Below, in pieces: positions 3,362-49,928 of a stretch of 49,928 bases of DNA. Where the stretch lies: the NCBI GenBank assembly GCA_003990765.1, contig RBNJ01000029.1, forward strand, positions 1 to 49,928. The letters run 5' to 3'. The position numbers were made by a program, and so were the translations under genes. This stretch comes from Jimgerdemannia flammicorona (taxonomy: Eukaryota). The notes beneath the pieces were generated by a model. The model saw only the letters and a program-made list of their open reading frames with translations, did no database searches and was not told the origin of the DNA. Within the stretch, counting starts at the first letter, position 1; the number at the start of each line of letters is the position of its first letter.

Positions 3362-4429
3362 ATGAGCAATAAATAACTTCTTCAACAACAATAGGCCACT
3401 CTGGCTGAGCGCACTGAGTTCCTTCACCAGATCACTGAGACTGTTGCGGTCAGCCTCTGCCCTCCTCTGCCAGATTCAGAGATCACAAACCAGTGCAACC
3501 AACAATGCCTCATTGATGCCCTTTTCCTTCAGTATTCCTGATGTTCCATCCCTACAGTCCTTGGACTCAATGGAAATCCTCATGGTATGGACCTCTGTGA
3601 TGATGCCAACAGTAGTGATGATGAATTCCTCACAGCAGCCAAGTCTCAGGCCATCAGGAGATATCATGTATCCCCTACATTCGCTGACACCATTCTACCA
3701 GAATGTGTCAAAGTATATCTCTCCTCTGCCAGTTTCAAGAAACTCCTCCATTGAAACCCCAAACCCAAACAGGGTGTTCTCTATACCCCCTCCATTGACA
3801 AAGCATTCATGGATGATTTCAGCAAATCTGCCAAAGAAGCAGACAAGGTTCTTGCTGACACCTAACAAGTGATCTACAACACCCTCTGGCCCATTGCCAT
3901 CACCCTCCAGGCCCTCGAACCTCACTCTGATGGAGCTGATCTCCACCACTATGAGCTGGTCTATGACACTGTCATTCCCCCTTTGGTGGAAAAACTGCAA
4001 GACTCTCTCCAGATCGGATTCCACAAAGCAGAACATATCCATATCTGCCACTGCATTGAACTTACCAAATCTGCAAGATGGTCACCTACCCTCATCTCTA
4101 CCTGCTACACAGTGGTTTCTGACTCCAAGTATAATGGCGACCTGTTAGGTATCAAATTTATCTGCTATTTTTACAATGATGCCAAACACTATAAGTATCT
4201 CCTCATAGTCAAGACAACATCCAAACTAAGAGGTAATCCAATCCTGTCCCATGGTCCTGATGATCACAGCCAGGAAAACGGGTCCCAGAGTGGCCACTGC
4301 CCCGACTACCAAAATTCTCAACAACAGAGCTCCCGGAACTACACTCTGAGTACATACAGCCAAGGAGGTTCCCAGTACCAAGCTCTGAATCTGGGCAACA
4401 GCACGTCAACACCTGCTGCTCAACTCTGA
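3362..4429 (+). pseudogene. DIRS gag-like ORF1 (frameshifted)
   Basis: ATG at 3362 follows the ITR; ORF pieces 3444-3872 and 3869-4429; colinear with the copy at 27095-28150. Confidence 0.65.
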
Positions 4430-4437
4430 AGGACCAA

Positions 4438-5960
4438 TTGATCTACCATACCTTTACTGCCAAGACCTTGAATGTCATCTCAAAGGTGGGGGCATGGTTA
4501 GCCCAGGTCCCTGAGACCATTTGGACAACCCTGGGCATCAACTGCTGGGTCATCAATACAGTCTATGGCAAGAACTGCATCAAATGGTTACAACCCCCAA
4601 CCCCTCTCTGGACTGAACCCAGGTTCTCCTATGAGAAGGACATGTCAGTGATGGAGAAGGCCCTGGTAGACACTGCTATCACTGAGTTCCAGGACAAGGA
4701 GGCCATCTATCCCACCCAGGATGGGGAGCTGCTCTTCTTCTCCAACATCTTCACAATCCCCCAGGTTGACAAGAACTAAGCCTGCCTCAATGTCCATCCA
4801 CTGAATGAGTTCATGAGGTGATTGCACTTCAAGATGGAAGGTATTCAGACCCTATGCCATATGGTCTGGCCTGGCAACCACCTTGTCAAGATCGATATAA
4901 AGGATGTCTACCTACACATTTCCTTACACCCAGCCAATCAACAGTTCCTCGCCTTTCAGTAAAGGAAGATCAACTAGAAATTCCATGCTATACCATTTGG
5001 CCTGTTGTCTACTCCATGCATCTGGACAAAGATGATGGCAGCTGTTCTGGAGCCTCTCTGAGCAAGAGGCATCTGGCTCACCTATTACATCAATGACATA
5101 TGTCTCCTGGCCTCTATGAGGAATGAAGTGCTCCAACATAGGAGGATCATTTGCAACTATCTGGAGATGTTGGGCTTTCTTCTACATCCAATGAAATGCA
5201 TATGGGAACCTATGCAGCAACAGATGTTCCTGAGGTTCCTGGTCAATACCATCAATATGGAACTCCACTTACCCAAGGACAAGGTATGCAAGATCTGTAA
5301 GGAAACTGCATCCCTCCTCCACCTACCAACCACGATCCCCATATGCAAGGTGGTGTCGCTAGTTGGTCTTTGCAATACTATAGCACAGGCGATCTTTCCG
5401 GCCTGGTTTCAAGTATGGTCACTCATTCGGGACATCCAGGACTCCCTTAATGCCAACAACCATAACTGGAATGGTCTCATATTCATCTCTCTAACATCTC
5501 AGGAGGACCTCTATTAGTGGTCCCTCGAGCTCTCCAGCTAGAATGGCTGGTCTCTACTTACCAAACACCCCAAGGTCACAATCGATACAGATGCCAGCGA
5601 CCTAGGTTGGAGCTTCAAAATCACTACTTCCATGTCCACCAACCAAGTGACACAGCAAGTGACAGGTACTTGGACCCCTGTGGAATGATACTGCTCCATT
5701 AACTACCACAAACTCAAGACAGTCCTGTTTGTACTCCAGATCAATAACCACCATTGGGAGGGCCACATGGTCCTCATTCAGACAGACAACATGACCATGA
5801 GGGCTTTCATCAACAAGCAAGGGGGCTCTCTCCTCTATCTGAAAGAGATCACTGCCAAGATATACTATATCTGCATGATGAGGAGGATACACCTCTTCAC
5901 CAAATTCATCCCTGGGATCGAAAACATGCGTGCTGATTTTTGGAGCTACATCTGCCCCAG
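4438..5960 (+). pseudogene. DIRS reverse transcriptase / RNase H
   Basis: FFSNIFTIP, HFKMEG, KIDIKDVYLH, IPFGL, YYINDI (decayed YIDD), LGFLLHPMKC, IDTDASDLGW, IQTDNMT, FIPGIENMRADF. Confidence 0.9.
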
Positions 5961-26200: not shown

Positions 26201-29200
26201 GTAATAAAAGAAACCATATAGCTTTATGAACTGTTAAAATAACTTGAATTTGCTCAAAAATGGAGCACTATACTATACTAGGATAATTAGTCTATAATTG
26301 TACTTGCTGAGAATTCAGTATATCATAGTAGAATGAAATATATTAATATATAATTTATTGTATATAGGAATGTATAGAAAATAATACTATATATTTGGAA
26401 TATATCCCCACAGAGTACATGATCACTAATTCACTTATGAAAGCCCTTCTAAAGCCAGAGTTTAAGCAATGCATTAAAGGAATTAATCTAATGAGCAATT
26501 TACTAGTATTTGGAGGATTTGGAGACACCATTAGAGATATTTTTCAAGCTGCAAAAAGCCTTCCTTACTGTATTATATATTACATATACATATATGTATT
26601 TTTTTACGTTCTTACTATATCTATTATTAAGATTGGATTTTTGTGGATATTTCAGATTTTTTAGATATATTTTGAAATACTTTTCAACCTGCAAAATTTT
26701 CTTAGATATAGGATTGTATATTAGTTTTTTAAGTTATATGTAGTTCTCATTTTTGTATATATTATATTGTTTTTTACTCTAGTTTGCATTCCTTTTTTTA
26801 GTTACTTATCTCATTAAGCAGGAGTATTGGAATAGTAAATTAACTAAGCTTTGCTTTGGTCTGGACCATTTCAGAGTAGGTTTCTGCTATTCTGAAAGCA
26901 TTGGTATACTTTATTTTATCTTAAACAAGATCTTATATTGGAAATTTCATTTGTCTAAGACATATGTATGAGACATTTCATGTAAAACATTATAATAAAA
27001 AGAATCTCGACTCCCATAGAGTCCCTTAGTCATTTTGAAAGCTTAGTAGTTCACCTCTACTTGTAACTACAAAAAACCCCTTTACTATATAACTATGAGT
27101 AATGAACAACTTCAACAACAATAATAGGCTGCTCTGGCAAACATGCTGAGTTCCTTAGATAAGTCACTAAGACTGTTTCAATCAGCCTCTGCCCTCCTCC
27201 ACCAGATTTAGTAGTTATGGACTACTGCAAATAACAGTATCTCATTGATGCCCTCTCTCTCCAGAGATCTTATAATTACAACTACACAGCAATTAGGACT
27301 AACAACCATCCTGATAGTATGGACCTCTATAGTGATACTAATAGTAGTGATAAGGAATTCATCACTGCTGCAAAATCTCAGTCTATTGGATGCTATTATG
27401 TATCTTCTACTTTTATAGATACTGTCCCCCTAGAATGTATTGAAGCTTACCTCACTACTGTCAGTTTCAAGAAACTTCTCTATTGAAACCCCAAACCCAA
27501 ATGAGATATTCTTCATTCACTCTCTATTGATGAAGCCTTCACTGATGATTTCAGCAAGTCTACCAAAGAAGCAGACAAGGTTCTTACTGACACCTATTGG
27601 GTAATTTACAACACTCTTCACTCCATCACTATCACTCTCCAGGCCCTCAAACTCTACTCCAATAGTACCAACCCCCACCACTATAGCTTGTTCTACAATA
27701 TTGTCATTTTCTCCCTGATGTAAAAGCTGCAAGACTCTCTCTGGATCAGTTTCCATGAAGCTGAATAAATCTAGATCTACCAATATATTGAACTAGCAAA
27801 ATTCACTAGATGGTCACCCACTCTTATCTTCATCTGCTATACTATAGTATCTGATTCTGAATATGATGTAACTTATTTGGTACTAAGTTCACATGCTATT
27901 TCTATAATGATGCCAAGCCCTTCCCATCATCAAGTAATCCTCTAAGCAATAAGGCAATACTCTTCTATCTTATGGATACAGTAGCCAGAGCTGGGGAAAT
28001 GGATCATAGGGTGGTTCTCACTCTGACTTCTGCAACTCTCAACAACTGAGTCCTAGGAACTATACTCTGAGTATGAACAGTGAAGGAGATCCCCCATACC
28101 AAACTCCAACCTCAGGAAATAGCACATCAACACCTGCTACCTACCTCTAAAGGATTTTACAATATATTATACTATTGCCCCCAAGACCCCAAACATTATT
28201 TCCAATGTTGGGGTATGACTAGCTCTGATCCCTGAGGCCATTTGGACATCTCTGGGGATCAACTACTGAGCCATTGACACAGTATATGGCAGGAACCACA
28301 TCAATTAATAGAGCCCCCCAACACTCCTTCAGACCAAACTCCAGTTCTTCTATGAGAGGAATATATCAATAATGCAGAAGATCTTGGTAGATACTGCAAT
28401 AGCTAAATTCCAAAATAAGGTAGTCATCTACTCTGCTTATGTTGTGGAACCACTCTTTCTCTCCAACATCTTCATGATCCCCCAGATTAACAAAAACTGC
28501 ATCTGTCTCAATACATATCTACTGAATGAGTTCATTAAGTGATTATACTTCAAGATAGAAGATATTCATACTCTTTGCCCTATGGTCTGGCCAGGTGACC
28601 ACCTAGTCAATATAAATATCAAGAATGCTTACCTTTACATCCTCCTAAATCCTGATGACCAATGTCTTCTGACTTTTCAGTAGTGAGAGATCAACTGAAA
28701 GTTCTGTGCCATACTGTTCGGCCAGCCATCTGCTCAACACATTTGGACAAAGTTGATGGCAGTGATATTGGTCCCTTTCTGAGCTTAGGGCATTCACTGA
28801 CTTACTATATTGATGATATATACCTCCGGAAGCCACTAAGAGTGAAGTACTCTGCTATAAGCAGATAGTTTGTAACCATCTGAAAACATTGGATTTCCTT
28901 CTTTATCCTACCAAATATATATGAGAACCTATATAACAACAGATGTTCCTGGGTTTTCTGATTGACACCATCAAGATGGAACTCTGCTTACCCAAAGATA
29001 AGATATACTAGATTTGCAGAGAGACCATATTTCTCCTTTAATAGACAGCTATGATCCCTATCCACAAGGTGGCTTCAGTGATAGGTCTTTGCAATTCTAT
29101 GACTCAGGTAGTTTTCCAGTCCATTTTGGAGTCTGTTCTCTGATCTGGGACATCTAGGCCTTCCTTAATGCCAACAATTACAACTGGAATAGCCTTATGC

Positions 29201-29523
29201 TGATCTCTCCCAATGCTCAGGAGGACCTTCACTAGTGGTCCCATGAACTTTTAGGATAGAACAGACAGTCTCTACTTGCTGAAAAACCAGAGGTTATCAT
29301 TGATATCAATGTCAGCAACTTGGGCTGGAGTTTTGAGATCACTGTCTCCTCAATGGTCTCTATAATACTATAAGCTTCAGGAATCTGGACTTTAGTGGAA
29401 CAGGACCTCTCCATCAACTACTGGAAACTCAAGGCAGTCTACTTTACCCTTTGGATCACTGAAGGATACTGAGAGGACCATATGGTCCTCATATGGATGA
29501 ATAATATAACTATACAGGCCTTC

Positions 29524-29770
29524 AATGAGTGGGCTCACTCGAGACCACAGGTCAATGAATACAGGAAGGTCTTGGGCATATAGTGCCCAAAATGTTTCAA
29601 CGCTGTTATTTGTAAGGCATTTCTAAATCAGGCATAGTCTTTCCTTTTTTGGTACTAGTGTGGTATGCACATTACTTCTATATGTAATTCTATCATTCAC
29701 CCAACATTACTTCATACATGCTTTACACTTATACTTTTGCGCTTCTGTACATTTGTATGCATTTCATTAC
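29524..29770 (+). repeat. Ngaro split direct repeat A1
   Basis: Direct repeat of 34712-34958. Confidence 0.92.
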
Positions 29771-29776
29771 ATTACC

Positions 29777-31228
29777 ATGGTCCTCTCTGCAAATTCCTGC
29801 CTTTTGTGTCGATATGACCCTTTCCATATATCGAAGAGCCAACACGACCTGGGCTCTACCACCTGCCCTTTCCACTCGGATGTTAATTTTATCGAGGGTG
29901 TGCTCCGCTTTCTGCAAGATGACCTGGAATCTGATAGCGAGAACTCTGATGTTGCTATCCTCATGGATTATCTCGCTACTCTCCCTGATCACTCTACTTC
30001 TGCACCCCACTGAATCACGTGTCTATTGGCATGTGCCACATCCAAGGCTCCCGCTAGCGCTACGGCGGCTGGACCAGTTTTTTTCAGCACACCGGCCTCT
30101 GATGTTTCCATTGAAGCCAGTCTTTCTCAGCTCCAAGAGCATGCATCCATGCAAGACCATCGGTTCAACAAACTTTTTCAGCTTTTACACTCTTGCCCCG
30201 ACATCATACCTTCGGCAGCACCGGCTAGTGCAGTTCCTGCCATTTCTGGTCAGGACACGTCTCCCATCATCGATCAAGCCTTTATCAATCATACTACTAC
30301 CTCTCTTTCAGCAGTTCTTGCATCCCTATCCTTATCCCAGCCCTTACTGACTATCTCTTTGGTTTGGTCCACCAGCATTCACGGCCCTGCCAGTAATCCC
30401 CAGGGTGAGTCTATCCCTATACCTCCTTCTGTCATCTCTGCTCGTACTATTGTCTGAGGCATCAATCTCTCTTTAAAATATGCCCATGTTAATCAACAGC
30501 TGTTGGCTGCAGTCGTCAACAATTCATTCACTGCCGTGTCGCTTGACCGTTTCTTGGAGTGAAACATCATTTCTATCGGTGGTCTTCCTGATGCTCAATT
30601 CATTGAAACATTTCATGAATCAGGTGCTCGGATCATTCTTCGAAAGCTGCCATCCCTTATCAAAGATCTTCCGGATGTCCCTGCTTTTCTCGCCACCTTG
30701 CTTATGTATTTCAGCATTCTTCATGACACATACCTGGGCCTCACCGATCCTACTCCATTCTTTTCATATGCCGCGGATTTTATTTTACTATCAACGTCAT
30801 TGTATTGGTCTGCACTTCTTGATTATCATGTCTCCTTTCACACAAAATGACTGGCGGAGATCGCGAATGATGGTGTTTCTTTGGTATGATGCAAGCACTG
30901 GGCCTGGCATGACCCCGACCTCTTTATGATCCTTAGTCTACATCAACGTCCACGAACTCCGACCTCTACATCTAATCCGCTTAAGCCCTTCAAGTCTTGC
31001 AACATACAATGGGGGCTACATCTTACTGATGGCTCCTCTGCTCTATCTACCGAGAATGCCTCTCAACGGTCTACTTGTCAGGCATACAACGGCATTCTAT
31101 TCAATGTATCACCCATGAAGGATCCTGGGTGCAACAGAAAAAGATGCCCTTATGTGCATTCCTGTTCTCGCTGCAATGGTGATCATCTGTGGTATCAATG
31201 CTCCCACAATCCATCGGCTCGCCCCTAG
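29777..31228 (+). pseudogene. Ngaro gag-like ORF1 with Cys/His finger
   Basis: ATG just after A1; C-terminal CNRKRCPYVHSCSRCNGDHLWYQC; several in-frame stops. Confidence 0.8.
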
Positions 31229-31229
31229 G

Positions 31230-32900
31230 AACTTGCCCCCATTTATTCTTTACACATACCTCTGGCCACTCCAAATACCCTACTCTGTTGCCCATTTACC
31301 ACCCCTCTTAATGAAGCTGCTCAAGATATTCTACATCGTTTTCCTCTTCCTTCTTCTGCTCTTCGCCCTGTCGCATGGGCGTATGAGCTCCAGTTGTATC
31401 CTGACCCACAGGTAGCTCAGGCTGCCATCGCCGCTATTACTCAAGGCGCTCTTCTTGGCTTTGATGGGCCTCGTCGTTGCCTGCTGTCCTACAATCATCG
31501 CTCTGCTCTTAACCACCCAGAAGTGATCATGTCTGACATTGAGTGGGAAGTTGCCGCCGGTAGAATTTGTGGCCTGTTCTTATCTCCTCCGTTCGAATGC
31601 TTTCGCTCATCTCCTCTCAGTGCCGTCATGAAGAAGAATTCTAATAGCGCATGGTGTCATATTCATGACCTTTCTTGGCCCCGTCATGGCGATTCGGTGA
31701 ATGCCGGCATAGATACTGACGCCTTCTAGTTCTCTTACATTAAGTTCGACGAGGGTTGGACTTGGTTCGTGATTTTGACCAGGGATGTCTTCTATCGAAG
31801 ATCAACCTCGTCGATACATATCGTCATATTCTCATCCATCCTACGGATTGGGAGTTGCTGGGTTTCGAGTGCTCAGGGCAGTTTTATTTCGATCGGTTCA
31901 CTCCTTTTGGTGCATCCTCATCACCATTTCTTTTCAACCTTTTCGTGGAACTTCTCATATGGATCGCCCACCATCATGACATATGCATGCTCATCCACTA
32001 TGTCGACGATTTTCTCCTCATTTTGCTGCCATTACAGCCATTTGCCCTCTCTGACCTATGTTTACTTCTTGCCATCTGTTGTCATCTCGGCTGGTTGATT
32101 CAAGAGCACAAGGTCGAAGGCCTGACAATGTCACTTGTCTTTCTGGGCATCGAATTGGATACAATGGCTATAGAAGCCCATCTGCCTCTCGGCAAGCTTG
32201 ACACATTGCTCGCCACTCTTCAGCAGTAGCTATCATGCACGTTATGTACATGCCCTCAACTGCAGTCTCTTATTGGTTCCTTGGCATTTGCCTGTAAAAT
32301 CATTCCACTGGGCTGCCCATTCCTGTGGCGGTTTATCGACCTTCTTTCTGGCAATACCTCATTCCATGTCTCACTGAATGAGGAATTCTATGCCAACATT
32401 CGTTGGTGGCTCGAATTCCTACCCCACTGGAATGGTATTTCCGTTATACATCTGGTGGCATGGTTCCATGAGCCTGATGCACAATTATGGATGGACGCCA
32501 GCAGGATCCAAGGCTTTGGTGCACATTTCAATAGCGAATGGTTTTCCGCTCCCTAGCCTCCCGATATAGTCTCATGCGACATTCAGTTCAAGGAACTTTA
32601 TGCTGTGGTCGCTGCTGCTGCTACCTGGGGTGCTCAATGGCATTTTCACTGTATATTGCTTCATTCTGATAATCAGGCAGTCATTGCTATTATCAACTCA
32701 GGCTCTTCACGCAACCCTCTTCTGCTAGAACTTCTCCACCAGCTCTATTTTCAAATGGCGCATCACACTTTTCAACTTCACGCCATATTCATCTCAACAT
32801 CCGATAACAGCATTGCTGATGCTTTATCTTGCGCTGATCTTCCTCATTTCTGTCATCTTGCCCCTTATGCTCAGATGCTCTCGAACACAATTGGTATCAT
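31230..32900 (+). pseudogene. Ngaro reverse transcriptase / RNase H
   Basis: FRSSPL, IHDLSWP..SVN, PFGASSSP, HYVDDFL, FLGIELDT, WMDAS..GFGA, KELYAV, HSDNQAV, NSIADALS. Confidence 0.92.
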
Positions 32901-32909
32901 TTGTATTCC

Positions 32910-33907
32910 ATGCTTCCACTTATTGTTGCCTTCTTTTTGTGGTTTGGACTGGCAAAATCAATGCACCCTCATACTCTTTAAGACAATGCAGCTTCCTCCT
33001 ATTCTGCAATCTCCATGGTGGTAATCATGCCTCTGGCGGGCCTTTGCCCACGTCCGAACTGGTGCTAATGTGGTGGGTCTGGAGCTTGGCCTTGCGACAG
33101 CTTCAACCATCCACAATCAAATGTTACCTCTTGGCCATTTGTTCTCTACACATTGACTCTGGCTTTACCGATCTGTTCATCAGTCTTCACCAACTTCCCC
33201 GAGTGATGTGTGGTGTGAAGTGGTAGCTAGGTGTATGCCCAACTTGACCTCGGCTTCCTATCACACTCAGTATTCTTCGCAGTCTTATCAGTCTGCTTCG
33301 GCTATCTGATTATGACAATCTGTATCTTGTGACTGTGATGTCACTTGCATATTTCAGTTTTCTTCACTCTGGCGAATTTACGTGGGACAGGTCTTTCGAT
33401 CCTGTTTCCCAGCTGTCCTGCGGCTCTGTGGTCTTTCAACCTAGCATTGCTGACCCTACCCATATTACGCTCACCCTGCCGGCCTCTAAAACAGACCCAT
33501 TTCGCCAGAGTGCATCACTTTTTATTGCCAAAACAGATCCCGCCACGCCATGCGTTGTATTCTTACTTTGCCTTCTTTATCTGGTGCACACAGCCCCACC
33601 TGACACCCCTCTGTTCCAGCGTTCCGCGAATCGATTGTTCTCTTGGGCCTATCTCATTAGTCGTCTTCATGTGTTACTTCCACGGAATGGTCTGAATCCA
33701 CTTCTTTATGCCGGGCATAGTTTTCAGATTGGTGCAACATCTGATGCCGCTGCGGCCGGTTTATCTGATTACGAGATTCAGATGTTGGATCAGTGGGAGA
33801 GCGTGGCGTTTAAAGGCTATATTCACATGCCTATTTCTCACATTCTCCACCTTCAGGCTTCGTTAACTCATAATACTTGTTCTGCTACTCATATTACTTG
33901 CGGTTAA
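32910..33907 (+). pseudogene. Ngaro tyrosine recombinase
   Basis: RLPITL, FLHSGEFT (normally R-S-G-E), SKTDPFR, YAGHSFQIGA, QWESVAFKGYI. Confidence 0.9.
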
Positions 33908-33931
33908 CGATTTCCCATTCCTCTTTTTCAA

Positions 33932-34297
33932 CTGCATAGTCCGTGACACCAGCTTATTCCAGGTCCCATGCAGCACATGACACCAGCCTTTATCTCTCCT
34001 CATTGGCCTTACATCACCATGCAGCTCGCAACACCAGTCTTTAATCCACCCACCTCAGCCTCTTGCCACCGTGTAGTTCACGATACCAATCTTTTCCAAC
34101 ATTGTGCGGCTCGTGACACCAGCCCTCCTTATTTTCGTTATCGCGCAGCTCGTGACACCAGCCTACTCGGACCCCCGTGCAACTCGCAACACCAGTTCTA
34201 TCCCTCGATCACTGGGCTCATTAAATCAGCTTCTTGGCTTTCACACGATTTGCAACACCTGCCCTCGGTTGTAACTGCGCAGCTCGTGACACCAGCC
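33932..34297 (+). repeat. Array of about ten 23-nt repeats (consensus YYGYGCAGCTCGTGACACCAGCC) with non-repeated spacers
   Basis: Copies start at about 33932, 33966, 34017, 34069, 34102, 34141, 34175, 34209 (degenerate), 34241 and 34275. Confidence 0.85.
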
Positions 34298-34478
34298 ATA
34301 TCATCGACATTGGGTGCAGCCTTTCTATTAAGCCTTCAGTGCCTTTCTATCTTCTACACCACTCACATTTCCATGTCCATAACCCCCCTTTTTACTTCAT
34401 TTGGGCTGAGTTCTTTCTTTCAGCACTGCCAACTCACACCGCTACACATTATCATTTCGCACATTTTACATATAACAT

Positions 34479-35225
34479 TTGGGCCAGTCTTTTATACCAT
34501 GTGTTTCCACCCAAATACAGAACAATCGATCATTTATTTGAGGTTTCTTTCCTAGGATTTCGGGGTGATGCATGGTCATTTCGGTGACATGGGGTTATTG
34601 GTGTTTTATCATGAAGATTGACATCACGTGAGTGTAGCATAGTTGATATTATGCAAAACATAGTATAGTTACGCCTCCCTAGCATAGATCAACATTACGG
34701 CAAAAACATTGAATGAGGGGGCTCGCTTGAGACCACAGGTCAATGAATGCAGGAAGGTCTTGGGCATATAGTGCCCAAAATGTTTCAATGCTGTTGTTTA
34801 TAAGGCATTTCTAAATCAGGTGTAGTCTTTCCTTTTGTGGTACTAGCGTGGTATGCACATTACTTCTATATGTAATTCTACCATTCACCCAATATTACTT
34901 TGTATGCGCTTTACACTTATGCTTTTGCGCTTCCGTACATTCGTACGCATTTCATTACCACCCACCTCACCCTACATATATATACATAGTGGTTGGGCCG
35001 GTCTTTTATACCATGTGTTTCCACCCAAATACAGAACAATCGATCATTTATTTGAGGTTTCTTTCCTAGGATTTTGGGGTGATGCATGGTCATTTCAGTG
35101 ATATGGCATTATTGGTGTTTTATCATAAAGATTGACATCACGTGAGCATAGTGTAGTTGATATTATGCAAAACGTAGTATAGTTACGCCTCCCTAGCATA
35201 GATCGACATTATGGCAAAAACATTG
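34479..35225 (+). repeat. Ngaro B1-A2-spacer-B2 terminal repeat block
   Basis: B1 34479-34711, A2 34712-34958, B2 34993-35225. Confidence 0.92.
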
Positions 35226-35681
35226 ATCAACAATAATAGAGCTCTCTCCACTACCATAATGAGATTGTGGCAGTAATCCACAGGATTTGCATGATGAGTA
35301 GGATCCACCTCTTTACTGAATATCTCCCTGGGACAGAAAACATGTGCACTGATTTTCTGAGTCACATCCACCCTAGCCTAGATAAGTAGCAGCTTCATTC
35401 CACAGTATTCAAATATCTATACCAATGGGGCCCCATCTATCTGGACCTCTTTGTCTCTTGAATAATGACCCAGATACTACTCTTTTTTAGCTAGAAAGCA
35501 GACCCCAATGCCTAGGGGATCAATGCCTCTCAACACCCATAGCTAATTTCAGGAGTATATATGAAACTCTCTTAGATTCTTCTCAACTACACTCAATCTC
35601 CAGATATTGTGACATAGTGCTTTCAGCTTGCAGACTCATCTAGGTCAGTATTCAGACATCCTCCTACAAGAACTATAAGTC

Positions 35682-35683
<2 letters not shown>

Positions 35684-35720
<37 letters not shown>

Positions 35721-36360
35721 GTCTCTCAGACTTCTTTATTATCAAATCTATCTATCTTTAATAGAATATAGTGATCTCACTCTCAACCAATTCCCTTCTG
35801 GGGATCACTCTCTATCTCTTTATATGTAATAAAAGATTATCTAATTATTAACTATTACTACTCTCTCTCTACTCTACTTACAAATCTCCTCTATAAGATA
35901 GTAGTAATAATTTCCTTAGGGGCTCTACCCCATCTACCAGCCAGATATAACCTCTCTCAATAATTCTTCTCACTTTACTAAATACTCCTCTAAGCTTATC
36001 TATCTTCTCTCCTTAAATATATAACCAGTATTCAGCTAGCCCCACTCATACTACCAAGATCTACTTAACTATAAGCTACTTATTATCAATACAATCTACT
36101 AATTGCTCTTTTAAATCATTTCACCAATCTCTCTCACCAATCTCTCTCCTTACTACTTCTAGATAAGATTCAACTACTATTTAGAAGTCTCTAAGAATCT
36201 TATACTCACTTAGTCAATATTCAGATATATATACAAAACCTCTCTCCTATCTTATATCATAATATTCCTTATAGTCAAAGCACCTACTATCTACTAGGTA
36301 ATCTGACTAAAAGTTCAATATAACATTCTTTTGCAATAAGTATTACTATACTACCTAGAC
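35684..36360 (-). mobile_element. Decayed LINE 3' end with poly(A) tail
   Basis: T-run 35684-35717 then atagtc; colinear with 40124-40770. Confidence 0.8.
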
Positions 36361-37710: not shown

Positions 37711-37884
37711 TTAGGAATCAGATTCAGGTATTATAATTAAATATCTATCTCTTGATTATTATTTCTAATTTAGATCAACTATCATAACTTCCTTCTGAAT
37801 AAGTGATTTTACCCCTGAATTATCTTATTTAAACTCTTATACTTTAACTAATTATATATTCTTATACTATATAATCAGTTTGAT

Positions 37885-37911
37885 TTTTTTTTTTTTTTTT
37901 TTTTTATAGTC
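37885..37911 (-). mobile_element. Ultra-truncated LINE insertion (6-nt body plus tail)
   Basis: T-run plus atagtc (the family 3' end), flanked by tataatcagtttgat / tataatctgcttgat. Confidence 0.7.
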
Positions 37912-38314
37912 TATAATCTGCTTGATTATATTCTTTCAATGATATCTTTTTACTTACTAGAAATCTCCTAAGACTACTTCTCAGAAATAGGCCAGAGCTT
38001 ACTCATTATTCTTGAATAGTTTATAAATCTACTTGACTATAGTGATCTGAGTATAGGATATCTGATACTCTGTAATTTTTTTTTTTTTAATCATATTCTT
38101 CTTATTTAATAATTTCTCTAACTTGAAATACTCTTAAAACTCAGTATAATGTTAGTAGACTCTAAAGTGTGAAATTTATAATAAGTGAGTCTATATATAT
38201 AATACTTTAAATACTATCAAAGAATCTCTCTATAGCTAATAGGAATACTATTGTTTTTCTATAACTTGCTGAGCAGTACTTATAATCTTGAGAGTTAGAG
38301 CAGTACTTCATTAA

Positions 38315-43884: not shown

Positions 43885-45579
43885 CTAGTACTCCATGCTC
43901 ATCTCATCTCCAGCCAGATCCAAGCGCCGTTCCGCCTCCAAGTCACCCTCCACATTAGCCTGAGCATCCAGTGCCTCCAAGATTTCCTGGTATTCCACCC
44001 CATCCACAACCTCCATATCTGACTGGTAGTCTAGGCAGACTGCGTGCCACTTCTCCAGTCCCTTCCTCGAATTCCACAAGAAAAGTGCCCTGTCGCTCGC
44101 AATCTTCTGGAGCTCCTCCTCCTGCTGATCATCCACTTGATACTTAACAGATTCCAAGAGAATGGCCAGGATCTCATTCCTCATCTTCCTTGGCACCTCC
44201 TCCCCTCGCAGAATCTCCTCCCAATGCCTCTTCTCCATCACTCGGAAGTCCTCACCTCCCAGCTCTTCTGCCACTACCTCTTCTAAGGTCTTCCACATCC
44301 ACTTTTCCTCATCCACTGCCTCTACCGCACCCTGAGCAATATGACCCCCATCCACCTCTGGGTCCATCAGCGCGCTCCTCCTCACTGACTCATCCCACTC
44401 CTCATCTGGCACATCCATCAGCTCCTCCTCTCCCTCAGCCCCACCCGGGACACTATACTGAGGGTGCACGCCCTCACCCATTTCAGTATCTACTGCCAAC
44501 ACACCTTCCTCCTCTACCCTCCCTCCAATCTGAGCCCCACTCTGGGCCATTTCACCCCCCTCAGCCCAAGCGCTCTCCTGCAACCCTGCAACTCCTTCTT
44601 CTGAGCTTCTACTGGCCCTACCCTCACCTAGCCTTGCCAGCAGCTCCTTCTGTATTTTCCTCCCCTGCATCTTCTCCCAAACCCCTTTCTCCATCTGGAC
44701 CTTCTTCCCATCCACCTCCCCTACCACCGTCCTGGCCTCAAACTCCTTCCAGGCCAATCTCCTCCTTGCAACCGCCCCTTCCAGATCCTTCAGCGCCTCC
44801 AACAGGTCCTCCTCCTCCTCCTGAGTCCCCTTCACCCTCACGACCTTACACTCCACTGGTCCCCACCTCAGTGTCGCCGGCCAGTCCCTCGACCTTCCCG
44901 TATTCTCCTTCCCAAACAGCCTCACCCTGACATCAATGTCACCAGTCCTAAGCACAGTGCCCTCCCAGACCTTGAACCCAACATCCACGATCTCGCCATA
45001 CTCCTTGATCGCCTCTACAACCATCTTCCTGGTCCTCTCCTTCGACACAGTTGGGAGATCCAACACCATCAACTGTATCACCCAGGGGTCCCAGCATATG
45101 CACCAGGTCATAGGAACCACAACCCCACCAACTATCACCCCCTTTTCCATGGCTGCCAACATGGCATCTTCCTCCTCAAACCCCACCTCAACCCCCTCCT
45201 TTCCCCTCAAAAACTTCACTGAGGCCACTCCCTTAGCCTCTTGCGCCACCAATCCCAAAATCATCCTCGCCATTACTGCCAAGCCCTGGAAGCACATAGT
45301 GACTGCGAATTCTGACCTCGACTTCTTGAGTAATGGGGCCAACACCATACCTGTCATGCTATCTGCCAAGTCCCCAGGCCTCGTGCCCCCTCCCAGTCCC
45401 GAATCGCTAACTGCTATTATATCTGAATTTTTTGTCAGATCCCCAGTCACAGCCCCATCAGCAGTCACAGCCCCATCTCCAGCCCCTACTCTGGCTCCTA
45501 CCCTACCACCAGAGGCTCCCCTGGGCACACCTCCTTGTCCTCCAGCAGCAGCGTCGAAGCCTTCCCCAGGCCCAGCCAA
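43885..45579 (-). CDS. LINE ORF1 protein (564 aa open; the true N-terminus is probably upstream across a frameshift)
   Basis: Long ORF directly upstream of ORF2; homologous to 10942-12970. Confidence 0.8.
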   Translation of the reverse strand: MAGPGEGFDAAAGGQGGVPRGASGGRVGARVGAGDGAVTADGAVTGDLTKNSDIIAVSDSGLGGGTRPGDLADSMTGMVLAPLLKKSRSEFAVTMCFQGLAVMARMILGLVAQEAKGVASVKFLRGKEGVEVGFEEEDAMLAAMEKGVIVGGVVVPMTWCICWDPWVIQLMVLDLPTVSKERTRKMVVEAIKEYGEIVDVGFKVWEGTVLRTGDIDVRVRLFGKENTGRSRDWPATLRWGPVECKVVRVKGTQEEEEDLLEALKDLEGAVARRRLAWKEFEARTVVGEVDGKKVQMEKGVWEKMQGRKIQKELLARLGEGRASRSSEEGVAGLQESAWAEGGEMAQSGAQIGGRVEEEGVLAVDTEMGEGVHPQYSVPGGAEGEEELMDVPDEEWDESVRRSALMDPEVDGGHIAQGAVEAVDEEKWMWKTLEEVVAEELGGEDFRVMEKRHWEEILRGEEVPRKMRNEILAILLESVKYQVDDQQEEELQKIASDRALFLWNSRKGLEKWHAVCLDYQSDMEVVDGVEYQEILEALDAQANVEGDLEAERRLDLAGDEMSMEY

Positions 45580-48206
45580 CTATCTAGCTCAGAAGCCATC
45601 TTCCCCATTCTGACTGTATCAGCAAAGGTTGACCTCTCCCCTCCTCTCTGCCTCAGACTGCCCCTCCCTCCACTGCCGGTACCTCTGCTCACTCTCGAGG
45701 CCTCTGGCATCCCCAAACCATTACCCCTCCTCCCCACCTGCTGCCAGCCAAAGGCACTGTCACCTCCCTGGCCAGTACGCTCACCAGTTCGATCGGTGCT
45801 GTCTATGTTGCTAGTCGTCTGATACCAAAAACATTGTAAAAAGTATTATCTGAGTCTTGTGTCACCCGAATGGTACTGGTGAAAGATGTCTAGAATATAT
45901 CTATATCTATAATACTACTAATCTGTTCTGAAGAAATACTATTGCTTTAAACAGACTCTATACAATCTATAAATAAAATATTACAGTACTAACCTAGGCC
46001 TAGTTCAATCTAAATAACTTTTAGAGAATGATTATGTCCACCTATCTAAGTATTATTATGTAATTATATTAAAGTCATATTTTCCCTGAAGAAGAAGAGT
46101 TACTGAAATAGAGTAATTCAGATATAGAAGAAAATAATAATATAGATATAGTTACTGAAGATATATATTTAAAATATCACAATAATAACTAAAGAATAGT
46201 CTAGAGATAGACTATTCTTTAGTAAGAGCTGATGTAATATACAAATAACATAATATGGCTAGATAATATAAATACTTAGTATAGTATAGTTATCTATATC
46301 TAGTTACTTATATATACTACTACTTATAATTAGCCAAAGATATTAAATTAGATTTATTAATTTATATCCTAAGAATATATTTATACTCATTAAACATATC
46401 TATATCTATTAAATATATATATCTATATCTATTAGATATATTTATATATACTTAGTAAATATACTTACTTACTCTCTCTTTTAAATAGTATTACTATATT
46501 CTATAGTTAGTCTTATAATAACTAAATAATAACTATAACTATATAAAATAACCTAGAGATTTAAATGAATAAATCTCTATCTCTAAAGTTTAAAAGCAAA
46601 AACTAATTATCTAGTATACTTAAGAGAAATATCTGTTAAAAATTACTTAATTATAATACTTAAGAGATATACCTATCAATAAGTCTCTGTTAAAAATTTA
46701 TAAGTATTATTTTATTTCCACTCTAGTCTACTTTCTGATATAAAGAAGTCTACTATATTTTTGATATACTTGTCAGATAAAGTCTGAAGTCTGCTAATTC
46801 CGAAAAAAATCTACATTATCTAAGTTATATATCTGTCTAATAAAAAAGTCTGTCAAATTATTTATATAATATTAAGACTAAGATCATCATATAGAAATTA
46901 TATATATATATGTATAAGAAAACTGCTCTTATTATACAACTTATTTAAAGAAAAAGAACTACCAAATTATTAAAAAAAATCTATCAATTTAGAAAAATCT
47001 ACTTGCTCAAGAAAAGTCTATTAAAATTATTATAAAAATCTACTGAAATTATTCATATTATGCAAAATAGAGAAACTATTAAACATTTTATTACTTTTGA
47101 CAAAGTAACTAGAGCTCAAGCCAAACTATATAACAGCTTCAACCTTATAATTTATCTCTATTAAACTGGTATATTTATAATATAAATAAATTTAAATATA
47201 TATATTTATAATTAAAAAAAGTTATTAGAGAGTATTAGTTCTAAGAATTAAATAATATATAAGTTATTTTAAAACTAATATAAAAGAAATATATATATAT
47301 ATTTAGTTAACTATTAAGAGATAAATAATAAAGTATAAAAAAATAATAATATATATAATAATAATAAAGTCTCTAATTAATTAGTTTTAAATTAATATAT
47401 ATTATAGTAAAATTAGTATAATTAAAAATTTACTTTAATAATTATATTTCTCTCTTTTATATATTTTTTCTCTTTATATATTTCTTTCTTTTTATATAAA
47501 TATACTTACTTCTATCTTATATATATATATAAGTTAAAGGTCTTATCATAGATACTCTTATTATAATATAAAAAACTAGATAATAAAATAATAATAATAA
47601 AAAGAGAGAGAGAGAGAATATACAGAGATATTCTGACATAAATATTAGTTTTTGATATTAATAAATAATTAAATATAAATAAACAGAATACTTATAATAT
47701 TAACAGAGAACTAAGATCTATTTCTGACTAAATAACTTATAGTTTATTAAAAATATATACTATATAATACTCAGCTATTGAGCTGATAATATATATTTTA
47801 TATAATAATAGATATTTTTATAATAGATAGATAGATTAAAAATTATCCAAATATCTAAACTACTATTATTATTATTAACATATAGCTCATTATAAAATAA
47901 TTTGATATTCTAGTCTTGAACTTCTGAAAAACTATATCATTTAACATAAAGCTTCTTCTAGAATTTAGATATATATAAAGAGTTTTTTGTAAAAACCACT
48001 TCATCTGTTACATAGTATGCTCACATAATTATTGGTTATTATAAATATCAGGAAATAGCAATATCTATAAGATTAAAGTTGGTTAGTTTTAATTTGTTTT
48101 ACAGCTATAATTATTTGCTTTAATTGTGAGCCACTATATATAAAAATAACAAAACCACACACTACATAAGCCCAATCCCAATCCCATCACACCTTCACAT
48201 ATCCTT

Positions 48207-48470
48207 TCTATGACAACCAGGGCAAGTTCGACAAAGCGGAGCCACTGTACGAGCGAGCGCTGGCGATCATGGAGAAGACATTGGTTTCTCTACAAATATC
48301 AGGACAAGTACAACAAGGCAGAGTCGCTGTGTTGGCAAGTACTAAGATGGTGAGATCAGAGCATTCAAACATGGCATTAACTCTGAACACACTCTACAAC
48401 AAACCAGGACAAGTACGACAAGGTGGGGTCGCTGTACGAAAGGGCGCTGGCGATTTTGAGAAGTTGTTGG
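48207..48470 (+). pseudogene. TPR-repeat (kinesin-light-chain / NLR-type) gene relic with about three repeats
   Basis: YDNQGKFDKAEPLYERALAIMEKTL; LYKYQDKYNKAESL; SEHSNMALTLN..QDKYDKVGSLYERALAI; frameshifted. Confidence 0.8.
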
Positions 48471-48575
48471 AACGCAGAACGACGACTGCAAATTCGAATT
48501 CCAGGAGCGCCCAATTCAGGATGGCGCCCAAAATTTTTGAATCCCACAACCGCGCGCGAGGGGGGTCAAAACTAG
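48471..48575 (+). mobile_element. Possible non-autonomous Helitron 3' end
   Basis: GC-rich imperfect hairpin ccgcgcgcgagggggg, then tcaaaa-CTAG|T. Confidence 0.4.
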
Positions 48576-49928
48576 TGTTGATAAGCTGGCGTCTTCCATA
48601 TACGTTTCAAGTGTTGTTGGTAACGAGGCACTCTAAAATACGTCGACCAGCGCTTAAGGGTGGGCACGGCTTTGTGGTCGGTCCGGGCGCTTAATAAATT
48701 CGGACCGGGTAAAGCTATATTTTTCATAGTTTTTGTGACCCCGCTCTGGATAGATAAAGCCTGGCCTTCGGGTCTCCTTTTTTTTGCTTTCGAAGATATG
48801 TGTTTTTCACCGTTTTTGCAACCCCACTTTTGTCTTTACTGACCTTCTTCATTTCACTTCCCTGGTTTTCGCGGTTTTCGCGACCTCACTTTTGCATTGT
48901 TATTGAAGGTGCCAATTCTCTGCTGCGTGTATATACGGTTCAGCCACAACAGACGCGTGTTTACTTGAGGACAGTCCCCCAACTCTCGAAATCCCTCCAA
49001 ACCCGTGCATCACCTACGTGTACCTCACCACCGCGCGCTCCGTCAGCCCCCTCAAGCACCTCAAACACCATCAACAGCAGTTCAAGGCCCATACTATACG
49101 ATGCGCTCTGCAACAGCATGACCCTAGCAGGTGCGGGCGCCATCACTGACCTGACCCGTCCGTTCGAATCTGGCACCTCCGCGTGCTGCACGATCTTTTG
49201 CCACACAAGCTGTCTGCATCGTCTACGCGGTCGGTGTCCATGAGCCGTGTTCGTGAATCCCGTTGTCACAACTAGCGGCCCGGTAGGCGGTCAGGGAATT
49301 GTGGTGTATGTATGTGGATCAGGTGGGTTTCTAAAGTAGCAGAATAGTATCGTATGGTGAAGATTCGCATGAGTAATTGTTTCAGTCGTCTATATACTCG
49401 AACCTCTCCAATTCCCCTCTCCACCAATTCAGCCCGATTCTTCCGTCACTCCTTCCAACCGCACCTCACCTCAGCTGGCGGGCCTGGTGCTCTGCGCTGC
49501 TGCCAAGCCGAGTCAAATGGAGCTGCTCAAGAAGAATCCGCTCAAGAACTTCGACTCTGAATCTGATCCGCGCGTTGTCTCTGCTCTGCCGCCGATTTGT
49601 CCACGAGGCAACCAGCTCGTGCCATTAAGCTGTCTTCACGCATCAAGACTCCTGCTGCCCTGATCCCCCCTGGAGGAAGGAAAGGCTGACTGTCAATCTT
49701 TCGCTGGTGTATATAATGGGGAAGAGATCTGTTTTGAGGAGATTAGGGCTAAAGAGGGAAAGTGTTGTCAGTGGGATGAGAGGTTGCGAGGAACGGCGCG
49801 AGGAGTGCCAGGAAGATGGATGTGGAAGTCGAAGACAATGATAATAAGGAAGAAATAGTGCTAGGGAAGAGAGTCAAATCCATTGCCGAGAACACCGGTG
49901 AAAGGTGAGTTTCATTTTTTTTTTTTTT

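Follow-up and report, generated by a model that had tools for sequence, protein, structure and literature searches.

A family-specific array of short CpG-rich cores, a candidate cluster of protein-binding sites, in the 3' non-coding part of a decayed Ngaro-type retrotransposon of Jimgerdemannia flammicorona

What are ten copies of a 23-nt motif, set apart by fillers that do not resemble each other, doing between the tyrosine recombinase (YR) gene and the closing repeats of a retrotransposon? The question arises from a stretch of DNA of Jimgerdemannia flammicorona, 49,928 nucleotides in length (GenBank assembly GCA_003990765.1, contig RBNJ01000029.1), which we refer to as the window, and in which an initial annotation made from the letters alone had noticed such an array. 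That annotation offered a menu of possible explanations: a binding array for the recombinase or for Gag, an RNA packaging or processing array, or a cassette-like array built by the YR. As will be seen below, it is the protein-binding part of this menu that best fits near-identical cores among unrelated spacers, although nothing singles out the YR or Gag as the binder; folding lends the RNA part no support, and the cassette part is rejected. Our preferred reading, to which we give a probability of about 0.5, is that the array is a selected cluster of putative DNA-level protein-binding sites, inherited as a non-coding part of an element of which this copy is dead.

The setting has to be established first. 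The initial annotation had placed the array in an Ngaro element, and all of the parts named in that assignment, namely A1, the reverse transcriptase (RT), the YR, B1, A2 and B2, were found between 29521 and 35226 on the plus strand, with the array in the 3' non-coding part:

29521..29770, plus strand: A1 terminal repeat, 91% identical to A2 (34709-34958) over 250 nt
31744..32229, plus strand: reverse transcriptase fragment (Pfam RVT_1, E 5.7e-10, 39.7 bits against a cut-off of 29.6)
32557..33024, plus strand: weak RNase H-like fragment (Pfam RVT_3, E 0.0034, 17.7 bits, below the cut-off of 21.6)
33053..33907 (start approximate), plus strand: decayed tyrosine recombinase, 70 homologues at E<=0.001, the best at 45% identity
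33932..34297, plus strand: the array, ten direct 23-nt cores and dissimilar spacers of 9-29 nt, from the unit table and the weight matrix
34298..34478, plus strand: pyrimidine-rich non-coding stretch from the array to B1 (GC skew about -0.36 to -0.40 over 33800-34549)
34479..34712, plus strand: B1 repeat, 94% identical to B2 (34993-35226) over 234 nt
34709..34958, plus strand: A2 repeat, overlapping the end of B1 by 4 nt (TTGA)
34993..35226, plus strand: B2 repeat, the 3' end of the element, 94% identical to B1

Ngaro elements are defined by split direct repeats in the order A1-[ORFs]-B1-A2-B2 (PMC8547959 and PMC3783388). The element has this split-repeat order, an RT (the RNase H-like match being weak) and a YR in the place of a DDE integrase; judged by its sequence, it is an Ngaro-type YR retrotransposon of the DIRS order, and this copy is dead. 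Its coding region (29627-33907) is split into many short frames, and the YR itself is divided between a frame holding the N-terminal part (32729-33226) and another holding the catalytic part (33248-33907, with the stop at 33905-33907). In an alignment of the window YR with 33 relatives, the invariant residues H157, S158, W183 and Y191 are kept, while this copy reads HSFQ in place of HSFR and DQW in place of GRW. Several of the 70 homologues carry Pfam PF00589; the named relatives are from Agaricales fungi (Termitomyces, Mycena, Tephrocybe, Ephemerocybe) plus one mussel protein, and the nearest Atlas clusters are eukaryotic Tyr-recombinase clusters that are commonest in Basidiomycota. Taken by themselves, these YR relatives would point to a fungal host, probably a basidiomycete. 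The RT fragment has 13 matches at E<=1e-10, 12 of them unnamed and one named as an RT-domain protein of a bacterial MAG. No Pfam match to a Dam-like methyltransferase, the domain whose absence sets Ngaro apart from DIRS1/PAT, was found in the eight frames scanned, which cover part of the broken coding region. The window holds no further copy of the element.

The ends of the element have features of their own. The end of B1 and the start of A2 have TTGA in common, B2 ends in TTGA, and A1 starts with TTCA right after unrelated flanking sequence; no target-site duplication is visible at 29500-29530, 34700-34715 or 35215-35240. Such end sequences lacking a target-site duplication would fit a recombinase-type insertion at a 3-4 nt crossover.

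The rest of the window offers a few observations in passing. An uninterrupted frame of 564 codons on the minus strand (43885-45579) encodes a protein rich in E, G and V that matches no Pfam family and has no homologue in a word-indexed search. Among the 17 ORFs scanned against Pfam, those outside the element gave only sub-threshold TPR matches, at 48170-48694. Two long T runs, at 35676-35732 and 37872-37922, lie 2.2 kb apart and are each followed by ATAGTCT; they may be the opposite-strand poly(A) ends of copies of another retroelement.

We now turn to the array. The about ten copies of the initial annotation are borne out as ten direct cores, all on the plus strand, eight of them clear and two (at 34209 and 34241) near noise:

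33932..33954, plus strand: core 1, 17/23 identical to the majority consensus, 24.7 bits
33966..33988, plus strand: core 2, 19/23, 29.7 bits
34017..34039, plus strand: core 3, 18/23, 30.8 bits
34069..34091, plus strand: core 4, 15/23, 21.9 bits
34102..34124, plus strand: core 5, 19/23, 32.3 bits
34141..34163, plus strand: core 6, 22/23, 34.7 bits
34175..34197, plus strand: core 7, 17/23, 28.0 bits
34209..34231, plus strand: core 8, degenerate, 13/23, 15.8 bits, below the shuffle maximum of 18.8, recognized mainly by its position in the period
34241..34263, plus strand: core 9, degenerate, 13/23, 19.3 bits, just above the shuffle maximum of 18.8
34275..34297, plus strand: core 10, 22/23, 34.1 bits

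The scores come from a weight matrix that was built from the ten cores and is hence circular for them; the background is given by 20 shuffled windows, the best of which reached 18.8 bits, against 21.9-34.7 bits for the eight clear cores. The support for the cores at 34209 and 34241 is mainly positional, in that they fit the period. When a 19-nt piece of the core was searched for at up to three mismatches, it matched five times in the window, always within the array, and never in 100 dinucleotide shuffles; a repeat finder independently grouped six of the array copies together, and a search of both strands found no further core-like site elsewhere in the window. Conservation goes slightly beyond the 23 nt, by one position on the 5' side (A at -1 in 7/10) and two on the 3' side (T in 6-7/10).

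The position and the rhythm of the array are much as first described. Core 1 begins 24 nt after the YR stop (about 25 nt in the initial annotation) and the last core ends 181 nt short of B1 at 34479. The start-to-start distances of 34, 51, 52, 33, 39, 34, 34, 32 and 34 nt were reproduced exactly, and six of the nine fall at 32-34 nt; the spacers, in array order, measure 11, 28, 29, 10, 16, 11, 11, 9 and 11 nt. The prevalence of regular 32-34 nt periods points to an origin by unit duplication, followed by a divergence of the spacers only.

We turn next to the contrast between cores and spacers. With ten cores in 366 bp, the layout is that of a cluster of binding sites: the mean pairwise identity of the cores is 0.63 for all ten, 0.70 for the eight clear ones and 0.77 for the 13 non-CpG positions of those eight, and the ungapped identity of the spacers is 0.29, with 0.31 expected from their composition. 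The spacers had been described as mutually unlike, and this holds. Over the 9 nt that directly follow the cores, they resemble each other no better than shuffled sequences do (p 0.71 and 0.48, ungapped), and the gapped all-against-all local alignment of the spacers gave p 0.65, or 0.18 when the bases were collapsed into purines and pyrimidines. Two features depart slightly from this: the 9 nt 5' of the cores are weakly alike (p 0.003-0.03), and the long spacers, 2 and 3, give a borderline alignment (p 0.05). Units 2 and 3 also have an identical core variant, and together with the borderline alignment this is the sole trace of a shared ancestry of units, as a unit duplication would leave it. 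A plain minisatellite was considered and rejected: the units cannot be aligned over their whole length, Tandem Repeats Finder returned no rows for the array at a minimum score of 30, and the spacers, at the p of 0.65 given above, do not align with each other as those of a decayed minisatellite would; it was such an alignment that the initial annotation had named as fatal to its view of the array.

How different were the cores when the element inserted? Counted against the majority consensus, the differences consist of 49 transitions and 6 transversions (n=55); counted against the ancestral unit proposed in the initial annotation, 36 of 61 are CpG-type and 14 of the 50 CpGs of the units are kept, in agreement with its remark that the copies differ mostly by CpG-type transitions. 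Under the replication model of Goodwin and Poulter, the A1/A2 and B1/B2 repeats are reportedly identical at insertion. Of the CpGs in these pairs, 4 survive in both copies and 14 in one copy only, from which the loss of CpGs since insertion would be roughly 64% per copy. CpG decay on this scale is enough to account for most differences among the cores; most of the present core divergence hence appears to be post-insertion decay of this copy, and the cores of the active element would have been near-identical and CpG-rich. The fit is not perfect. Differences that are not of the CpG type make up 25 of the 61 in the cores, or 0.11 per site, against an estimated 0.02-0.03 per copy in the A/B repeats, and this excess implies some variation among the cores by the time of insertion, when the two weak ones had probably already diverged. 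Two CpG palindromes, one of 8 and one of 6 nt, would be present in a core restored to its CpG state; they are absent from the sequence of today. The observed/expected ratio of CpG is 0.80 in the array, 0.63 in the element and 0.25 in the whole window, which looks old, CpG-decayed and repeat-rich and has no tRNA gene according to ARAGORN.

Other copies of the family provide a test that the initial annotation itself had proposed, i.e., whether the array, and the same spacers, recur in them. The only public runs having words in common with the window, each to a small share, are two soil metagenomes and one run of a further organism; none of them is listed as RNA. In one of the soil runs (X1), metagenome contigs aligned at an 80% threshold are, among the rows listed, about 90% alike (80-99%) to the window over 25 of 30 bins of the element, and the array is present among them. 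One contig covering 33759-34018 reaches from the YR across cores 1 and 2 and their spacers to 2 nt inside core 3; it is ungapped and differs from the window at 23 positions. Both array bins have depth, and the sole indel in the array among the rows listed is a 1-nt deletion at 34249. Going from the window to the contigs, most changes are T>C or A>G, which means that C and G have been lost more often from the window copy. Since these contigs have the same array start and the same spacers without gaps, the spacers were inherited with the element and their acquisition is rejected; by this comparison of copies, the array with these spacers was in the family before the present copy inserted.

Two more sets of contigs belong here as observations; among the rows listed, neither set covers the array. 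In the second soil run (X3), short contigs are near-identical to the window at 34404-34582 and 34949-35043 in B1 and B2 (0 of 83 nt and 1 of 95 nt different), and that run probably includes, at low depth, this organism or one very close to it. In the remaining run (X2), guessed to be RNA, high-depth contigs contain short pieces of A2 and B2 (window 34522-35226), all of them running into unlike sequence, and one piece of 325 nt is 94% alike over the end of A2 and the whole of B2; these pieces may be solo A-B remnants or a related family.

Beyond the family, the array is not found. Metagenome contigs were scanned with the YR alignment, which gave at least 526 confirmed stretches among the 600 pattern matches examined, and 80 loci were kept. 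None of these 80 has the window motif as an array (16-nt core, up to three mismatches); there are six scattered single matches only. In L001 and L002, which at 39-40% YR identity are the closest among the matches listed, B1 starts at the YR stop with no gap, and the repeat that starts at the stop codon recurs 509 nt downstream; the family of the window has a gap of 571 nt between the YR stop and B1. (In L002, the last 190 nt of the YR gene and the start of B also recur 4.3 kb upstream at 89% identity, positions 1-265 and 4300-4564, which suggests two elements placed head to tail.) At least six copies of some 12-mer were found just past the YR in 5 of 62 loci, in the upstream coding part in 0 of 69, and in the far flanks in 11 of 52; among all 71 loci that extend 500 nt or more past the YR, 6 have such an array. 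Given that the closest listed relatives are gapless and that related loci show no enrichment past the YR, the array is, from these comparisons, specific to this family and no general Ngaro feature. The idea of a recurrent short-repeat array past the YR of Ngaro relatives was dropped, the far flanks having the higher frequency. The core has no match in viral contigs, and in contigs of prokaryote genomes it occurs 38 times, each time singly in a bacterial record and never as an array; we take these matches to be due to chance.

Short motifs of other kinds do form arrays past the YR in some relatives (L021, L017/L029, L032, L059 and L071). In L021, a 19-nt motif rich in CpG is repeated seven or more times at 4979-5220, paired in a 63-nt higher-order unit (81% identity); this array begins about 330 nt past the YR match, and the contig ends inside it. 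L032 has a tandem array with a 73-nt period downstream of the YR. In L017, and also in L029, a run of a GC-rich motif of about 19 nt lies inside the B repeat and is hence in both B copies (L017, 4975-5156 and 5803-5968), and in L059 the array begins at the end of B2.

How can these findings be put together? In the reading that we prefer, the active ancestor would have had some 8-10 near-identical, CpG-rich cores of 23-26 nt in one orientation, mostly 32-34 nt apart, and purifying selection would have acted on the cores alone, leaving the filler between them free to drift. Selection on the cores alone is suggested because the spacing is regular, the cores are constant and the filler is randomised. 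The cores would serve as docking sites at which a single kind of sequence-specific protein, in several copies, would be loaded onto the DNA a short way upstream of the B1-A2 junction. Were the element circular or arranged head to tail, this array would come to lie about 0.4-0.8 kb upstream of an A repeat. That the recognition would take place at the DNA level we infer from the lack of RNA structure and from the two CpG palindromes of the restored core, which would suit dimeric binders; going by this reconstructed motif, the binding might also be sensitive to methylation. As for the protein itself, we lean toward a host factor, in an enhancer, UAS or insulator-like role, over the YR, because the closest listed relatives have no array and the relatives of the YR show no extra arm-binding domain.

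Dense motif clusters in the non-coding parts of transposons are already known, and the best comparison for a host factor is the gypsy insulator of Drosophila, in which 340 bp of a retrotransposon 5' UTR contain 12 Su(Hw) sites (PMC2374998), several of them being needed for the effect. Both systems have about 10-12 short cores in about 350 bp of a retrotransposon non-coding region with an unconserved filler. The gypsy sites belong to the 5' UTR of an insect Ty3/gypsy LTR element, with cores of about 12 bp, an AT-rich filler and both protein and function demonstrated. The array described here sits in the 3' non-coding part of a YR retrotransposon, has CpG-rich cores of 23-26 nt, and is known from sequence alone.

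Sites for a protein of the element itself, as in the subterminal repeats of CACTA elements, would be our second choice after a host factor. According to PMC2613891, TNPA binds the CACTA subterminal repeats, whose sequence is specific to the family; more generally, the CACTA/hAT subterminal repeats are cis sites for a DNA binder encoded by the element, either a TNPA-like protein or the transposase, with a GC-rich part, and methylation may block them. The CACTA (En/Spm) and hAT repeats resemble the array in being many short family-specific motifs at irregular spacing near an element end. They differ in belonging to DNA transposons, where each end has its array and the motifs point either way. 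The present array is the only one in its element, keeps to one orientation and lies 0.4 kb from the presumed junction, and the element is a retroelement for which no accessory DNA-binding protein is known.

The main rival to our preferred reading is that the array is neutral, an internal repeat made once by slippage, RT template switching or unit duplication that has been hitch-hiking ever since with no function. We consider this somewhat unlikely. It gives a ready account of an array that is family-specific and absent from the closest listed relatives, and it draws support from the far flanks of related loci, where short-repeat arrays are as common or commoner than just past the YR (11/52 against 5/62), and from the plain tandem arrays downstream of the YR in L021 and L032. 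Units 2 and 3 leave what looks like the trace of a duplication, as noted above. A one-off origin with unrelated fillers, followed by hitch-hiking, would also suit the material, which consists of one copy and fragmentary contigs. A neutral repeat is, however, difficult to reconcile with the state of the spacers. Duplication copies core and spacer together and drift erodes both, yet the spacers stand at the chance level and the cores at 0.63-0.77; Tandem Repeats Finder returns nothing; and fillers of 9-29 nt at a mostly fixed period of 32-34 nt are hard to obtain from untemplated additions. A neutral origin thus accounts for the family-specific presence and leaves the contrast between core and spacer unexplained. 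Tandem repeats are common in the non-coding parts of other retrotransposons. Those of plant LTR retrotransposons, in the 3' non-coding region and said by Macas et al. (2009) to be a source of satellites, are likewise family-specific arrays between the last ORF and the 3' terminal repeat. Those arrays are true head-to-tail repeats of which whole units align and the copy number varies, whereas in the present array the cores alone align.

A more specific version of protein binding would take the cores to be putative arm-type-like accessory sites for the recombinase or the ORF1 protein of the element, on which a complex controlling integration would assemble on the circular cDNA near the B-A junction, with methylation of the five CpGs per core acting as an off-switch. 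We think it improbable. The arm-type sites of the lambda family are the parallel: there too, a tyrosine-recombinase element has a motif in several direct copies next to its recombination site. Lambda Int has a separate N-terminal domain for arm binding. The aligned YRs (n=34, up to 373 aa) show the N-terminal core-binding and catalytic parts only, with PF13495 on two of them (P0037 and P0038). The array lies about 415-780 nt from the B1/A2 junction, where the crossover site is assumed to be, and L001 and L002, the closest listed relatives, do without the array.

Could the array work as RNA? It lies in the transcribed 3' non-coding part with all of its cores on the sense strand, and the cores are conserved and the spacers are not; one could imagine sites on the genomic RNA for the ORF1 (Gag-like) protein or the RT, for packaging or for the priming of cDNA. 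The core moreover has an ACACCA, which presumably resembles a tRNA 3' end. The folding results speak against this possibility, which we judge to be just as improbable as the accessory sites. The RNA of the array has no more stable fold than shuffled sequences (z +0.25), 57 of 100 of which equal it or do better, the single cores and the CpG-rich unit of the initial annotation, which had asked for its folding, do no better and give no better hairpin, and a scan of the array against Rfam returned no matches; by folding and Rfam the array is no structured RNA. The conservation continues past the CCA (GCC, then T T), which a mimic of a tRNA end has no need of, no complementary copy of the core occurs elsewhere in the element, and the absence of the array from the closest listed relatives counts against this role too.

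A third ORF is very unlikely. A frame of 202 codons without a stop (33947-34555) does run over the array, and in 1000 dinucleotide shuffles of 33908-34600 its length was equalled or exceeded in just 3.6%, which might suggest a real frame with the motif as a coding repeat. As had been remarked in the initial annotation, though, the copies are in different reading frames: the core starts modulo 3 are 2,0,0,1,1,1,2,0,2,0, with all three frames used, and periods such as 34, 52 and 32 nt are no multiples of 3. The frame has no Pfam match and extends into the B1 repeat, and its one hit among 1.84 billion representatives (P0088) is a single 29-bit match to a repeat protein counted six times, and is spurious; the other copy, in the soil run, has no gaps over the part of the array that it covers. 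The array is non-coding.

The weakest reading, a cassette or CRISPR-like array into which the YR inserts new spacers, can be dismissed on the evidence that, behind a likeness of layout alone (repeats alternating with dissimilar spacers), which is all that the initial annotation had granted to CRISPR, the other copies have the same spacers ungapped, these are irregular and at 9-29 nt too short for cassettes, the two long ones have no match of at least 80% identity elsewhere in the window and the 16-nt one a single match there (three mismatches, at 26789), and the host is a eukaryote, as are the relatives of its YR. A CRISPR array proper has repeats of one length and spacers of nearly one length, with spacer sets differing from lineage to lineage, and comes with cas genes in a prokaryote.

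What would a cluster of binding sites mean for elements of this kind? To our knowledge, the transcription, circle formation and integration of Ngaro and DIRS elements are known from models only. The literature searched, on Ngaro with tandem repeats or satellite DNA and including a fungal Ngaro survey in which the word "tandem" does not occur, describes no such array; it is consistent with the statement of the initial annotation that none was known, and dense motif clusters of the type discussed above are not on record in it for this class of elements. Nor does it describe any cis-acting site outside the split repeats for Ngaro or DIRS, and the array is a candidate for such a site. If nothing binds to it, the array would join the internal repeats that are peculiar to a lineage; the copy described here is dead in any case. 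If the cores were accessory sites after all, they would be the first cis-acting array of recombination accessory sites in a eukaryotic tyrosine-recombinase retrotransposon. And if the binder is a host factor, the family would be another case, as gypsy is, of a retrotransposon carrying a dense landing pad for a protein of its host.
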